This document shows, in pieces, positions 24,873 to 50,247 of a stretch of 64,000 nucleotides of DNA. The notes beneath the pieces are model-generated. The model searched no databases, had not been told where the DNA came from, and saw nothing but the letters and a program-made list of their open reading frames with translations. The position numbers and the translations under genes were made by a program. This DNA is from an uncultured Clostridium sp. (lineage in GTDB: Bacteria; Bacillota; Clostridia; TANB77; CAG-508): contig USCB01000003.1 in assembly GCA_900553125.1 (NCBI GenBank), positions 17,808 to 81,807 of the forward strand. Direction: 5' to 3'. Positions within the stretch are counted from its first letter, which is position 1. Each line of letters begins with the position of its first letter.

Positions 24873-24914
24873 GGACCGGTTCTTTTTAGTACATGTACCA
24901 AAAAGAACCGATCC
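24873..24914. repeat. GC-rich palindromic element, copy a (GGACCGGTTCTTTTT..AAAAAGAACCGATCC)
   Basis: 15-bp arms with 1 mismatch around the inner palindrome GTACATGTAC. Located at a gene 3' end. Confidence 0.75.
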
Positions 24915-24995
24915 CAAAAGTACAAATTCCCATTGACTTTTAATTCAAATGTTTGTATAATTTAATACGATTTGAAGATTTGAAAGGAGCAAATA

Positions 24996-27065
24996 ATGGC
25001 TGACAAATTAATAATAGTGGAATCACCTGCAAAAGCAAATACAATAAAAAAATTCCTAGGAGGGAGTACAAAAGTTGTAGCTTCAATGGGACATATAAGA
25101 GATTTACCTAAATCAAAATTAGGAGTAGATATAGAACATGATTTTGAACCACAATATATAAATATTAGAGGAAAGGGAGATTTAATTAAATCTTTAAAAA
25201 AGGATGCAAAGGTAGCAAAAAAAGTGTATCTTGCAACCGACCCGGACCGTGAGGGAGAGGCTATTGCATGGCATTTAGCTCATATTTTGGAAGAAGATGA
25301 AAGTAAAATTACGAGAGTTACATTTAATGAGATAACAAAAAGTGCGGTGCAAAAAGCTATAAAAGAGCCTAGAGATATAGATATAAACTTAGTTGATGCT
25401 CAGCAAGCAAGAAGGGTTTTAGATAGAATAGTTGGTTACAAAATAAGTCCGGTTCTTTGGAAAAAAGTAAAGAGAGGACTATCTGCTGGACGTGTACAAT
25501 CTGTAGCGGTTAAATTAATAGTTGATAGAGAAGATGAAATTGAAAACTTTATTCCAGAAGAATATTGGAATATTTATGTAAACTTGCTAGACAAAAATTC
25601 TAATAAAGAATTTGAGGCACACTTTACAGGAAAGAATAACAAGAAAATCGAACTTCATTCTAAAGAAGAAGTGGATGAAATTTTAAAAGACATAGAAAAT
25701 GCAAAATATGTAGTAACAGACATAAAGAAAAGTGAAAGAAAAAGGCAACCAGCACCACCATTTACAACAAGTACAATGCAACAAGAGGCTTCAAGAAAAT
25801 TAAATTTTACATTAAAAAGAACAATGTCAGTTGCACAAGTCCTTTATGAAGGAATAAAATTACCACAAGGACATACTGGACTTATTACATATATGAGAAC
25901 AGACTCAACAAGGATTTCAGAAGAAGCAAGAGCAGCAGCTAAAGAAGAGATTTTAAAGACATATGGCGAAAAATATTATGAAAATAGATATTATAGAACA
26001 AATAAAGATGCACAAGATGCACATGAGGCAATAAGACCAGCACATATTGAACTTTCACCAGATGAAATAAAAGAATATTTAACACCAGAACAATATAAAT
26101 TATATAAACTAATATATAATAGATTTTTAGCAAGCCAAATGCCAGCTGCCATATATGATACAATGCAAGTATCAATAAAAGCAAATGATTATGATTTTAA
26201 AGCAAATGGACAGAGTTTAAAATTTCAAGGATTTATGGTTTTATATGTAGAAGGTACAGATGAAAAACAAGTTGAAGAAAAAGGAATGTTACCACCATTA
26301 GAAGTAAAACAAGAAGTAGAAAAGAAAAAAATAAATCCAAAACAAAGTTTTACAGAACCACCACCACGATATACGGAGGCAAGTTTAGTAAAAGCTTTAG
26401 AAGAAAAAGGAATAGGAAGACCATCAACATATTCTCCAATTATTACAACAATAATAGATAGATATTATATTCAAAAAGAGCAAAAACAGCTTGTTCCAAC
26501 AGAACTAGGTAAAATAGTAAATAAGCTTTTAATAGAAAACTTTTCAGACGTTGTAAATGAAGAATTTACAGCTAATATCGAAACGAGATTTGATAGAATT
26601 GCAGAAGGTGAAGAAAAGTGGAAAAATATAATTAGAGAATTTTATGGACCATTTATAAAAGAAGTTGAAAAAGTAGAAGAAGAATTGGAACATGTAAAAT
26701 TAGAAGATGAAGTTTCAGATGTAGTTTGTGAAAAATGTGGAAGGCTAATGGTTTATAAATATGGAAGATATGGAAAATTCTTAGCATGTCCAGGTTTTCC
26801 AGAATGTAGAAACACAAGAGCTATTGTAGAAACAATAGATGTTCCTTGCCCAAATTGTGGTGGAGTTGTTCAAGTTAAGAAAACTAAAAGAGGTAGAAAA
26901 TTTTATGTTTGTGAGAATAATCCAGATAAATGTAATTATATATCTTGGAACAAACCTAAGGTTGGAGAAAAATGGGATCCAGAGAAACAGGAAAAAGTTG
27001 ATACTGGTGAGAAAAAGACAAGAAAAAAAGCTACTGGTAGAAAGAAAAAAACTAGTAAGAAATAG
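24996..27065 (+). CDS. topA: DNA topoisomerase I
   Basis: Toprim N-terminus (LIIVESPAKA..I..FLG), DPDREGEAI, the active-site region YMRTDSTR and C-terminal Cys4 zinc ribbons. Confidence 0.97.
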   Translation: MADKLIIVESPAKANTIKKFLGGSTKVVASMGHIRDLPKSKLGVDIEHDFEPQYINIRGKGDLIKSLKKDAKVAKKVYLATDPDREGEAIAWHLAHILEEDESKITRVTFNEITKSAVQKAIKEPRDIDINLVDAQQARRVLDRIVGYKISPVLWKKVKRGLSAGRVQSVAVKLIVDREDEIENFIPEEYWNIYVNLLDKNSNKEFEAHFTGKNNKKIELHSKEEVDEILKDIENAKYVVTDIKKSERKRQPAPPFTTSTMQQEASRKLNFTLKRTMSVAQVLYEGIKLPQGHTGLITYMRTDSTRISEEARAAAKEEILKTYGEKYYENRYYRTNKDAQDAHEAIRPAHIELSPDEIKEYLTPEQYKLYKLIYNRFLASQMPAAIYDTMQVSIKANDYDFKANGQSLKFQGFMVLYVEGTDEKQVEEKGMLPPLEVKQEVEKKKINPKQSFTEPPPRYTEASLVKALEEKGIGRPSTYSPIITTIIDRYYIQKEQKQLVPTELGKIVNKLLIENFSDVVNEEFTANIETRFDRIAEGEEKWKNIIREFYGPFIKEVEKVEEELEHVKLEDEVSDVVCEKCGRLMVYKYGRYGKFLACPGFPECRNTRAIVETIDVPCPNCGGVVQVKKTKRGRKFYVCENNPDKCNYISWNKPKVGEKWDPEKQEKVDTGEKKTRKKATGRKKKTSKK

Positions 27066-27074
27066 TTTTTTTGG

Positions 27075-27157
27075 ATTGGGGACGGTTCCTTTTACGAAAT
27101 GTTCCATTGGGACCGGGTCTTAATGGAACATTTTTCTGAAAAGGAACCGTCCCCAAT
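27075..27157. repeat. GC-rich palindromic element, copy b (composite/nested)
   Basis: Outer arms ATTGGGGACGGTTCCTTTT / AAAAGGAACCGTCCCCAAT enclose a second hairpin, aaatgttccatt/aatggaacattt. Confidence 0.8.
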
Positions 27158-27176
27158 ACGAAAAGAGGTGTAAAAA

Positions 27177-48627: not shown

Positions 48628-48641
48628 ATTAAGGAGAAACA

Positions 48642-49430
48642 ATGGATAAAGAAAATATATTAAAAAAATTAAGTGAAAATATTCAAAATATTGAGGAAAT
48701 TGATAATCAAATTGCAATGGTAGGACTTGCAATATATCAAAAAAATATAGAAAAAATAAAAAGTCAAAAAATCCAAGAAATAAGAAATTTTTTCAATGAA
48801 AATGCAAAAAGATACAATCAAAAAAGTGAAAACTTTAGTGATAAAATAGACAATTGTGTAAAAGAATACTCTGAAAGAATAGATTGCTTAATTAAATCAT
48901 ATGATAATATGTATTTGAATGTATTTAAAATTATGCAAAACGCTTTAGATATGCAAAAAATATCAATTGCTAATATAGTAACACTATTAAATGCAGGGGA
49001 TAGTGAGGAAATAAAGGAAAAAGTTAAAAATTCAATACTTGCTTATGCAGAACAAAAACTAAATTACTCAATTGTAGTACAGGAGTGTGCAGCAAGAAGT
49101 GAATGGTGTATTGAAAATGTAAAAAAGGACATAGAAGAAGTATTTATAGTAAAAGAAGAAACAAAACAATTACAAATGTATAATAAAAATATTATTAATA
49201 AAATTACTGAAAAGATTTCTAATATTTTTTTAGGAAAGAGTAAATATAAAAAATTTTTAGAAAATTATGAAAATGAATTCTTAAAGAAAATAGATGAAAA
49301 AAATAAGATTAAAATTATAGATACTATAAATACCATGAAAGGTGTTATTAATCAAATGGCGATATTAAATAGAGATATTTCGGTAAGATTTGAAGAATGT
49401 AAAAAATATGGAGCTAGTTACCAAAAATAA
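48642..49430 (+). CDS. Hypothetical helical protein
   Basis: 262-aa ORF with RBS aaggaga. Tightly spaced after the preceding ORF. Confidence 0.45.
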   Translation: MDKENILKKLSENIQNIEEIDNQIAMVGLAIYQKNIEKIKSQKIQEIRNFFNENAKRYNQKSENFSDKIDNCVKEYSERIDCLIKSYDNMYLNVFKIMQNALDMQKISIANIVTLLNAGDSEEIKEKVKNSILAYAEQKLNYSIVVQECAARSEWCIENVKKDIEEVFIVKEETKQLQMYNKNIINKITEKISNIFLGKSKYKKFLENYENEFLKKIDEKNKIKIIDTINTMKGVINQMAILNRDISVRFEECKKYGASYQK

Positions 49431-49440
49431 AAGTTGGTAA

Positions 49441-50184
49441 CTAGTTTTTATTATTATCTAAAAGAACAATCTTTTTAGCCCTTTCAACATCTTCATCAGT
49501 TGCATTACGCACGCCTTCCAACTCGTATTTATCACCATATTCAAGCCATTTATACTTCCCCATAGTATGATAAGGCAAAAATTCCACCTTTTGTACAGAC
49601 TTCAAAGAACTAATAAAATCTCTCAATTTAATCAAATCATTTTCATCATCAGTAAACCCAGGAACCAAAACTTGCCTAATCCACATTGGTTTTCCAACAT
49701 CACTTAAATACCTAATAAAAGCGAGCTCTCTTTCATTAGAAAATCCAACTAAATCTTTACATTTATCTGGATCAATGTGTTTAACATCCATCAAAAATAA
49801 ATCAGTTAAATTAATTAATTCTTTGATCTTATCGGTTAAGCCAACCATACCAGATGTATCAATACAAGTATGAATTCCTTTAGCTTTAAGTTTCTTAAAA
49901 AGCTCAATTAAAAACTCAAACTGTAAAAGAGGTTCACCACCAGAGCAAGTAACGCCACCATTTTTTATATAATTTTTATATCTCAAAATATTATCAAAAA
50001 TATCATCTAACGAACGGTAATCTCCTGCATTTATGTCCCAAGTATCTCTATTATGGCAATATTTACATCTTAGGCTACATCCTTGTAAAAATAAAACATA
50101 TCTTATTCCAGGTCCATCTAAAGTACCAAAAGATTCAACTGAGTGTACTTTTGCATAATATTTTAAATCATCTTTGTTTTGCAT
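49441..50184 (-). CDS. pflA: Pyruvate formate-lyase activating enzyme (radical SAM)
   Basis: GPGIRYV.FLQGC.LRC.YCHN cluster motif. Downstream of pflB. Confidence 0.93.
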   Translation of the reverse strand: MQNKDDLKYYAKVHSVESFGTLDGPGIRYVLFLQGCSLRCKYCHNRDTWDINAGDYRSLDDIFDNILRYKNYIKNGGVTCSGGEPLLQFEFLIELFKKLKAKGIHTCIDTSGMVGLTDKIKELINLTDLFLMDVKHIDPDKCKDLVGFSNERELAFIRYLSDVGKPMWIRQVLVPGFTDDENDLIKLRDFISSLKSVQKVEFLPYHTMGKYKWLEYGDKYELEGVRNATDEDVERAKKIVLLDNNKN

Positions 50185-50207
50185 ATTGTAATCCTTTCAT
50201 TTTTTGC

Positions 50208-50247
50208 ATTGGGGACGGTTCTTTTCGCGAAAAGAACCGTCCCCAAT
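50208..50247. repeat. GC-rich palindromic element, copy e (between pflB and pflA)
   Basis: ATTGGGGACGGTTCTTTT-cgcg-AAAAGAACCGTCCCCAAT, perfect 18-bp arms. Confidence 0.85.

Follow-up and report, generated by a model that had tools for sequence, protein, structure and literature searches.

REP-RAYT systems and the palindromes of contig USCB01000003.1

Repetitive extragenic palindromes (REPs), their hairpin-forming doublets (REPINs) and the REP-associated tyrosine transposases (RAYTs) constitute a well-known kind of system (PMC2817692, PMC3116915). Abundant repeats have been associated only with RAYT groups 2 and 3, and group 1 only with low-abundance flanking 16-mers (Bertels 2017, PMC5581495); groups 1, 4 and 5 are described as co-opted single-copy genes. 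In the classification of TnpA-Y1 proteins, REP-like secondary structures were reported to be absent from subclass 2.1 (long proteins with a helix-turn-helix (HTH) domain, patchily distributed across phyla), with which the TIRtrons, as well as group 1 of Bertels, have been equated (Quentin 2018, PMC6006769). The inverted ends of TIRtron/TIRYT elements share the sequence GGGGWSAS (Di Nocera 2013, PMC3733652). Here, we analyzed five dispersed palindromes in a 64-kb stretch of contig USCB01000003.1 of an uncultured Clostridium sp. (assembly GCA_900553125.1, positions 17,808 to 81,807; this whole stretch is called the window below). Each palindrome is composed of two inverted units, placed head to head, with the core (G)GGGAC(N)GGTTC(T/C)TTT. 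We assign a probability of roughly 0.85 to the explanation that the five are REP/REPIN-type non-autonomous mobile elements spread by a RAYT transposase.

The repeats described here resemble the REPIN-RAYT systems of Pseudomonas and Enterobacteria in several respects: extragenic palindromic repeats are arranged as inverted doublets able to form one long hairpin, a Y1/HUH gene is found between inverted repeats, the repeat co-varies with the transposase clade, and the RAYT genes of related contigs occupy conserved chromosomal neighborhoods. However, the 5' GTAG/GTGG foot (GT[AG]G) of the canonical units is lacking, and a conserved block GGGAC(N)GGTTC is found instead, in the stem of a doublet or the loop of a single unit. 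In classical REPs the GC-rich stem is conserved and the sequence is species-specific, whereas here the conserved part is an 11-14 nt core, which mostly forms the loop on a variable stem and is nearly invariant across genomes labeled as three phyla. The RAYT proteins also differ from those of Pseudomonas and Enterobacteria, being about 260 aa long, with a C-terminal HTH, and occurring in Bacillota hosts.

To judge by sequence, the closest described relatives are the TIRtron/TIRYT elements, i.e., subclass 2.1 (especially 2.1.2) and RAYT group 1. The traits in common are a long RAYT-like protein that has the motifs NHVH, FQ and SS and a C-terminus of the HTH_23/HTH_28 type, inverted ends beginning with GGGG, a patchy distribution over phyla and, in some species, ends that form moderately abundant families of dimeric repeats. 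The canonical end of the elements analyzed here, GGGGACGG, differs from GGGGWSAS by G instead of A at position 7, while the variants GGGGACAG and GGGGTCAG of related loci fit that consensus, as do the GGGGTCAGGCC ends (start GGGGTCAG) of a 31%-identical homologue on a Sporomusa plasmid. In contrast to subclass 2.1 and group 1 as published, a hairpin forms each end here, and dispersed doublets occur about 5 times per 64 kb. The motif around the catalytic tyrosine (Y[IV]HQNP) is also distinct from the Y[IV]HLNP or YIELNP of subclass 2.1 and matches subclass 2.6 in the published table.

Structure and location of the five palindromes

An earlier reading of this DNA, made from the letters alone (the sequence-only reading), had listed five palindromes following stop codons. 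All five are present at the coordinates listed there, together with one additional single unit nested within copy 2, and all are intergenic, situated 0-45 nt past the stop codon of the DUF6514 gene, topA, the ABC ATPase gene, rpoD and pflB, respectively. In an inverted-repeat scan they were among the 11 longest palindromes of the window (GC content 0.25-0.33); the arms span 24-33 nt and are complementary at 82-96% of positions. Each is an inverted doublet with 18-29 paired positions, and the palindrome reaches outward into flanking runs of T (upstream) and A (downstream). Predicted folding energies of the RNA range from -27 to -63 kcal/mol (z -6 to -11), and DNA folding gave z values of -6.5 to -11.7.

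Copy 1 (24861-24926) is an imperfect REPIN-like doublet, whose arms (24873-24886 and 24901-24915; AGGACCGG and CCGATCCC) are 88% complementary. It is flanked by the terminator of the DUF6514 gene (24827-24860) on one side and a promoter-like site of topA (24933-24961) on the other. Copy 2 (27068-27164) is a composite element placed between the topA stop codon (27065) and the ogg start codon (27177), with perfect outer arms (ATTGGGGACGGTTCCTTTT, 27075-27093, and its complement, 27139-27157) and a predicted RNA folding energy of -62.7 kcal/mol (z -11.3). Its loop accommodates the nested single unit (27096-27133, plus strand), which has a 12-bp stem (GAAATGTTCCATT/AATGGAACATTT) and exposes the core GGGACCGGGTC (27109-27119) in its own loop. 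Copy 3 (31859-31915), a palindrome with 28-nt arms of 96% complementarity, overlaps the TGA codon that ends the ABC ATPase gene, with a promoter-like site of smc downstream of it. Copy 4 (41132-41187) is a doublet between the rpoD stop codon (41120) and the start of a mechanosensitive-channel gene (41208), ending about 10 nt ahead of the ribosome-binding site. Copy 5 (50195-50260), a doublet with perfect arms (50208-50227 and 50228-50247), is located between the stop codon of pflB (50263, minus strand) and the start of a gene for a pflA-like radical-SAM activase (50184).

The copies fall into two sub-families, set apart by an indel of 1 nt: GGGGACGGTTC (copies 2, 3 and 5) and GGGACCGGTTC (copies 1 and 4). 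The earlier description of perfect palindromes with one consensus is thus only partly adequate: it suits some of the copies, while copy 1 is imperfect and the consensus is out of register for copies 1 and 4. The likeness of the arms, also claimed there, far exceeds chance expectation (10-14 matches against 0.1-0.5). When the window was scanned with GGGACSGKTCYTTT, allowing up to 2 mismatches, 14 matches were obtained (0.47 expected), and two 17-mers, with up to 3 mismatches allowed, gave 10 and 11 matches (0.12 and 0.09 expected), every one of which is confined to the five elements. A chance origin of the arm matches is excluded.

Distribution of the core motif in other genomes

The window originates from a lineage of uncultured low-GC human-gut Clostridia. 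Its closest genome in GTDB is UMGS1925 (nucleotide identity of about 96% in two stretches common to both and of about 81% in others). A two-arm pattern of the repeat was used to scan 185,579 GTDB species genomes. The motif is not confined to the window, since at least 114 stretches matching the pattern were detected, against approximately 4 expected in random sequence by our estimate. Among the matches listed, the GC content of the carrier genomes ranges from 24 to 71%, and the matches include contigs of 0.1-1.4 Mb and cultured isolates. The carriers are labeled as Bacillota (Lachnospiraceae, Oscillospiraceae, Bacillaceae, Syntrophomonas, Pelotomaculum and others), Bacteroidota (Prevotella, Porphyromonadaceae, Muribaculaceae) and Actinomycetota (Micropruina, Propionibacteriaceae, Coriobacteriia). 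UMGS1925 carries at least 12 pattern-matching doublets in eight blocks of 8 kb or shorter, which were chosen for holding a match, and further partner arms of composite elements lie in the same blocks. The density in the window is 5 doublets per 64 kb.

The core is fixed by the scan pattern itself, but the parts outside the pattern remain informative. In the pattern matches the palindrome nearly always continues through GTCCC, while the outer and inner stem sequences differ genome by genome. Besides doublets, these loci hold cores that stand alone or are repeated in direct tandem with a period of 21-35 bp. Such arrays, repeating every 21, 34, 35 and 24 bp, were identified in L009 (4449-4574 and 5711-5800), L024 (7570-7746), L050 (4000-4071) and L067 (2316-2400), from Clostridiales UBA3678, Micropruina, Coriobacteriaceae and Propionicimonas. 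The core is surrounded by a local stem of 5 bp or more in 49% of 486 units, compared with about 7% in randomly paired flanks, and 161 different stem sequences were distinguished among the units. These co-varying local stems indicate that in most lineages the basic unit folds as a hairpin whose 11-14 nt loop is conserved and whose stem co-varies freely.

Rfam searches (with the gathering score for the window, and at E<=1 for eight repeat-rich loci) returned only sub-threshold look-alikes of microRNA precursors at the repeats, such as any hairpin may give. A search for the core sequence in full-text literature yielded only chance matches to primers, and a wide search of the literature for RAYT in Bacillus or Clostridia brought up nothing relevant.

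Association of the core with RAYT genes

The sequence-only reading had proposed a REP/BIME-like (bacterial interspersed mosaic element) family with a dedicated partner protein. An all-against-all comparison of open reading frames (ORFs) across the repeat-bearing loci revealed such a partner: one ORF family, recurring beside the repeats in L009, L068 and L074, which belongs to PF01797 (Y1_Tnp). The L068 protein scores 84.3 in the NCBIfam model REP_Tyr_transpos (cut-off 80), and the best solved relative of the family is the E. coli TnpA-REP (4ER8). The aligned proteins (258-285 aa) share the motifs NHVH (HUH), FQ, WSS and Y[IV]HQNP, and possess a C-terminal HTH; HTH_23 exceeds the Pfam cut-off of 24.6 in P0052 (26.4) and P0096 (27.1) and is weak in L068. 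In L068 and L009 the RAYT gene has inverted cores or core arrays on both sides, formed by the two tandem arrays in the case of L009, and in L074 a core is found just upstream of the gene and a doublet about 180 nt downstream. Among 8,000 candidates scored, at least 6,101 RAYT homologues were obtained at E<=1e-10, many of them named RayT by their source. Genes of this clade are situated in conserved chromosomal neighborhoods and are rare on plasmids (16/72,556 records).

An independent test of the association was based on 80 metagenome loci picked by RAYT protein similarity alone, 58 of which have at least 120 nt on both sides of the gene. The exact core adjoins the RAYT gene on at least one side in 28/58 of these loci and on both sides in 21/58, while by our estimate about 0.005 occurrences per locus would arise by chance. 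The geometry is fixed, with the core about 63 nt upstream of the gene and its complement 33-45 nt downstream, and each end forms a small hairpin carrying GGGACGGTTCT in the loop. Related ends, including GGGGACAGG, GGGGACGGGG, GGGGACGTTTC and GGGGTCGGTTC, are present in at least 14 of the other 30 loci. The RAYT genes nearest to the RAYT relic of the window (described below) have ends that correspond to its repeats: ATTTGGGACCGGTTC in L119, identical with the second sub-family, and ATTGGGACCGGGTA in L128, identical with the nested unit, whose core, read as GTGCAATTGGGACCGGGTA, equals the inverted ends of the L128 gene. More distant RAYTs have GGGGACAGG, GGGGACGGGG, GGGGACGTTTC, GGGGTCGGTTC or GGGGTCAGGCC. 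At the level of sequence, the repeat core and the RAYT protein thus co-vary.

Two look-ups for an intact RAYT of the GGGGACGGTTC sub-family (P0060 and P0030) gave genes with canonical flanks in other organisms. A RAYT homologue on a Collinsella plasmid has no recognizable ends. Many of the RAYT-encoding metagenome contigs are only 1-2 kb long, as expected if assemblies break at flanking repeats.

A RAYT relic in the window

The window contains a decayed RAYT (Y1/HUH) gene (37671-38080, plus strand), which was recognized by tblastn, alignment and ORF analysis. Its first part (37671-37937) aligns to residues 117-201 of intact RAYTs, with 48% identity (E 1e-17) to the L009 protein and 50% (E 3e-25) to that of L119. 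The tyrosine motif YVHQNP has been changed to NSHRNP. The N-terminal HUH half is missing, and a tRNA gene (37517-37589, minus strand) and a promoter-like site adjoin the relic on that side, while the HTH tail persists in another frame (approximately 37997-38080). In other strains the 3' end of the relic is 100 nt longer and includes a degenerate right-end unit, TTCTCCGTCCCCAAAAG, at the expected distance. The repeat population of the species is either a fossil or depends on an intact RAYT encoded beyond the window.

Orthology of the relic with the syntenic RAYT loci L117-L128 was considered and rejected, as they have no neighbor genes or tRNA in common. A separate observation concerns some strains, represented by L198, L200 and L201 (positions of about 2760-3560, corresponding to about 37690-37790 of the window), where an insertion of about 770 nt is found inside the relic. 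It creates a 192-aa ORF without a Pfam match, fused to the C-terminal part of the relic.

Occupancy of orthologous sites

For the copies that could be compared, 2-8 sampled strain contigs of the same species cover each site (2 for copies 1-3, up to 7 for copy 4). The spacing was the same in all of them, including the 88-nt spacer at the rpoD junction, and the sequence, compared for copies 1-3, revealed a single-nucleotide polymorphism in one arm of copy 3 in strain L002.

Between species, relatives with TopA of 84-96% identity were compared, and orthologous sites proved to be empty, filled or occupied by another variant, a comparison that the sequence-only reading had recommended. The DUF6514-topA junction is empty in L206, where the T-run of the terminator passes straight into the topA -35 box, and filled by palindromes of about 66 nt in the window and in L205. 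The topA-ogg spacer lacks the element in L207, L209, L208 and L206 (5, 8, 29 and 49 nt, respectively), while it is 111 nt long in the window and 109 nt in L205, which harbor different variants (the L205 core is GGGGTCGGTTC). In the ABC-smc spacer, copy 3 covers the stop codon in the window, whereas in L205 the ABC gene is followed by an ordinary terminator, and two units in tandem immediately precede the ribosome-binding site of smc. The pflB-pflA junction of UMGS1925 carries an element at the site of copy 5, with the same one-base insertion in both arms relative to the window. Such empty, filled and differently filled sites show that the elements are gained and lost. At the one clean pair of filled and empty sites (DUF6514-topA), no target-site duplication is visible.

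Several differences were noted in the vicinity of the elements. A 7-nt tandem duplication (AATCAGA AATCAGA, 50248-50261) beside copy 5 is single in UMGS1925. A block of about 3.9 kb (28042-31985), comprising two minus-strand ORFs and the ABC ATPase gene and ending in copy 3, separates ogg from smc; it is absent in L206 and L209, where ogg directly abuts smc. In the window (27177-28041, plus strand), as in L001, L002 and L205, the ogg gene is split into two overlapping ORFs of 62 and 228 aa, the split-ogg lineages being those with the topA-ogg palindrome; in the palindrome-free L206-L209 it is a single ORF of 287-288 aa. A synteny break at 61.9 kb of the window, relative to UMGS1925, was discarded as an occupancy case, as it is not a clean presence/absence difference.

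Proposed mechanism and alternative explanations

The comparisons described above establish a repeat family, its link to a clade of Y1/HUH RAYTs, the co-variation of core and protein, and the gain, loss or replacement of elements between relatives. The mechanism that we propose is modeled on the E. coli TnpA-REP and the IS200/IS605 TnpA (PMC3333891, PMC3479197, PMC8266576). As the ends of the RAYT gene are inverted, a doublet is what remains once the gene has been removed from between them. The doublet would fold into a perfect hairpin on single-stranded DNA, most likely on the lagging-strand template at the replication fork, while in most other lineages each unit would fold alone, exposing the core as a loop. 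The Y1/HUH transposase would then recognize the core, cleave the DNA and rejoin the element elsewhere, without target duplication. Selection would spare only those insertions that fall between a stop codon and the promoter or ribosome-binding site of the following gene, and this filter of tolerated insertions may account for the position of the palindromes at gene ends. The IS200/IS605 elements share the enzyme superfamily (PF01797) with the RAYTs, and the model of folded single-stranded ends and absent target duplication is borrowed from them. However, they are multi-copy and autonomous, with left and right hairpins that differ, whereas here the gene is typically single, its ends are reverse complements, and the spreading copies lack the gene.

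Several points weigh against mobilization by a RAYT. The 64-kb window yielded no intact RAYT, including for the GGGGACGGTTC sub-family, and no movement within the species was seen in the sampled strain contigs. The units of the window, except for the nested one, lack the single-unit hairpin of other lineages and pair with each other. Neither the foot nor the short GC stem of canonical REPs is present, and a cleavage site or target rule could not be defined. The link to RAYT is seen only where source names say Bacillota: a protein search aimed at Bacteroidota and Actinomycetota gave only Bacillota names among the matches listed. To our knowledge, there is no biochemistry on this RAYT clade.

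An alternative that we consider unlikely is that the palindromes are RNA elements of the host, acting as bidirectional terminators or stabilizers of 3' ends, whose likeness is due to selection or gene conversion. The position of all five right behind stop codons, the high stability of the RNA hairpins and the plausible need for unequal expression at some junctions (pflB/activase, rpoD/next gene) would suit such a role, as would copy 3, the only one listed by a terminator consensus scan, by virtue of a weak tail. Bidirectional termination, which the sequence-only reading had suggested, does not agree with the flanks, as the order T-run, stem, A-run, read on both strands, is the opposite of what is needed, and no T-run follows the stem of copies 1, 2, 4 and 5 on either strand. 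Copies 2, 4 and 5 stop 10-25 nt short of the ribosome-binding sites of ogg, the mechanosensitive-channel gene and the pflA-like activase gene, which leaves no room for a promoter downstream, and transcription must therefore read through them. Copy 1 is located just downstream of a separate, ordinary terminator (24827-24860), and the related species L206 retains that terminator alone. The same junctions are element-free in relatives with 84-91% identical TopA, and the core flanks transposase genes, neither of which speaks for a host RNA element. The intrinsic terminator reading was dropped on flank polarity and context, on which grounds we regard the palindromes as not being intrinsic terminators. 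Once transcribed, their 18-29 bp hairpins would nevertheless be likely to block 3'-5' exonucleases or to serve as RNase III substrates. Long perfect RNA hairpins of the Correia/ERIC type are RNase III substrates or stabilizers (cited in PMC3733652). The Correia/NEMIS elements of Neisseria and the ERIC (enterobacterial repetitive intergenic consensus) sequences offer an analogy to the present elements as intergenic palindromic repeats co-transcribed with their neighbors, but they differ in their size (100-150 bp), distinct terminal repeats, TA target duplication and lack of a RAYT.

It is very improbable that the palindromes are duplex DNA sites, i.e., operators or nucleoid-organizing sites bound by a dedicated dimeric host protein. 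The half-sites are indeed palindromic and conserved, promoter-like -35 boxes begin 12-19 nt past the end of two copies, and the C-terminal HTH of the associated RAYTs could read duplex DNA. However, the spacing of the core arms (2-47 nt in the window and 0-30 nt elsewhere) is too wide for a fixed dimer, single units and direct tandem arrays (21-35 bp) also occur, three copies lie between co-transcribed genes, and the co-varying stems (49% vs. about 7%, 161 sequences) point to a folded single strand. The slimmest chance is left to classical miniature inverted-repeat transposable elements, i.e., internally deleted copies of a DDE-transposase insertion sequence that move by cut-and-paste and duplicate their target site. 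Terminal inverted repeats starting from GGGG, small size, intergenic location and variable presence between relatives would be in agreement with this origin. Against it, the only full-length relatives found encode a Y1/HUH and not a DDE transposase, direct duplication is not evident at the filled vs. empty DUF6514-topA sites, and the RAYT genes keep to conserved chromosomal neighborhoods and are rare on plasmids. Other candidates were rejected as well: an analogue of DNA-uptake sequences, because lone arms are absent from coding DNA and all arm matches are located in the five elements, and mimics of the tRNA T-arm, LexA or ECF-sigma (extracytoplasmic function) boxes, parS, integron attC sites and CRISPR repeats, due to motif mismatch or too variable arm spacing.

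Significance of the repeat family

The finding is not a new principle; it is of interest mainly to those who specialize in bacterial repeats and HUH enzymes or annotate low-GC gut genomes. Work on REPIN-RAYT systems has dealt almost exclusively with Proteobacteria, and group 1 (subclass 2.1), the largest of the RAYT groups, is on record as lacking REP-like repeats. Here, a RAYT clade common in genomes named as Bacillota is associated with hairpin ends with a conserved loop, with dispersed doublets and with turnover between gut species. Such elements explain many "terminator-like" palindromes in low-GC gut genomes, which should not be annotated as terminators, and the RAYT contigs of 1-2 kb fit the idea that repeats of this kind break metagenome assemblies. 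The conserved loop and its transposase are a tractable pair for studying how Y1 enzymes read single-stranded DNA. If the palindromes are still actively spread by a RAYT, tens to hundreds of doublets and an intact RAYT with ATTGGGGACGGTTC ends are to be expected, and cleavage should depend on the core, including GGGACGGTTC.

A broader proposal, which we advance tentatively and rate a little short of an even chance, is that RAYTs of group 1 (subclass 2.1.2) maintain REPIN-like populations through a near-invariant 11-14 nt loop, GGGGACGGTTCT, set on lineage-specific stems, across genomes labeled as Bacillota, Bacteroidota and Actinomycetota (GC content 24-71%). If so, this loop would be the most widely conserved REP-type sequence known and would provide a single tractable recognition pair of protein and single-stranded DNA.

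Other features of the window

An OLE (ornate, large, extremophilic) RNA is encoded at 23185-23739 (plus strand; 299 bits, gathering score 50). It is followed downstream by a 181-aa ORF without a Pfam match (23821-24366) and then by the DUF6514 gene (24493-24828). In L209 only 145 nt separate tmk from the DUF6514 gene, and both the OLE RNA and the gene for the 181-aa protein appear to be lacking.

An unrelated inverted repeat (47809-47912), with 49-nt arms that are 92% complementary and 6 nt apart, has no second copy among the sequences compared. It is situated in a stretch of the window (about 47.8-49.4 kb) without a counterpart in locus L064 of UMGS1925. Two near-identical hairpins (44858-44893 and 45845-45875; AAAAAGCTACTT..AAGTAGCTTTTT), flanked by an A-run and a T-run in the manner of bidirectional terminators, bracket a minus-strand gene (44893-45654), and the 12-mer that they share occurs twice in L072.

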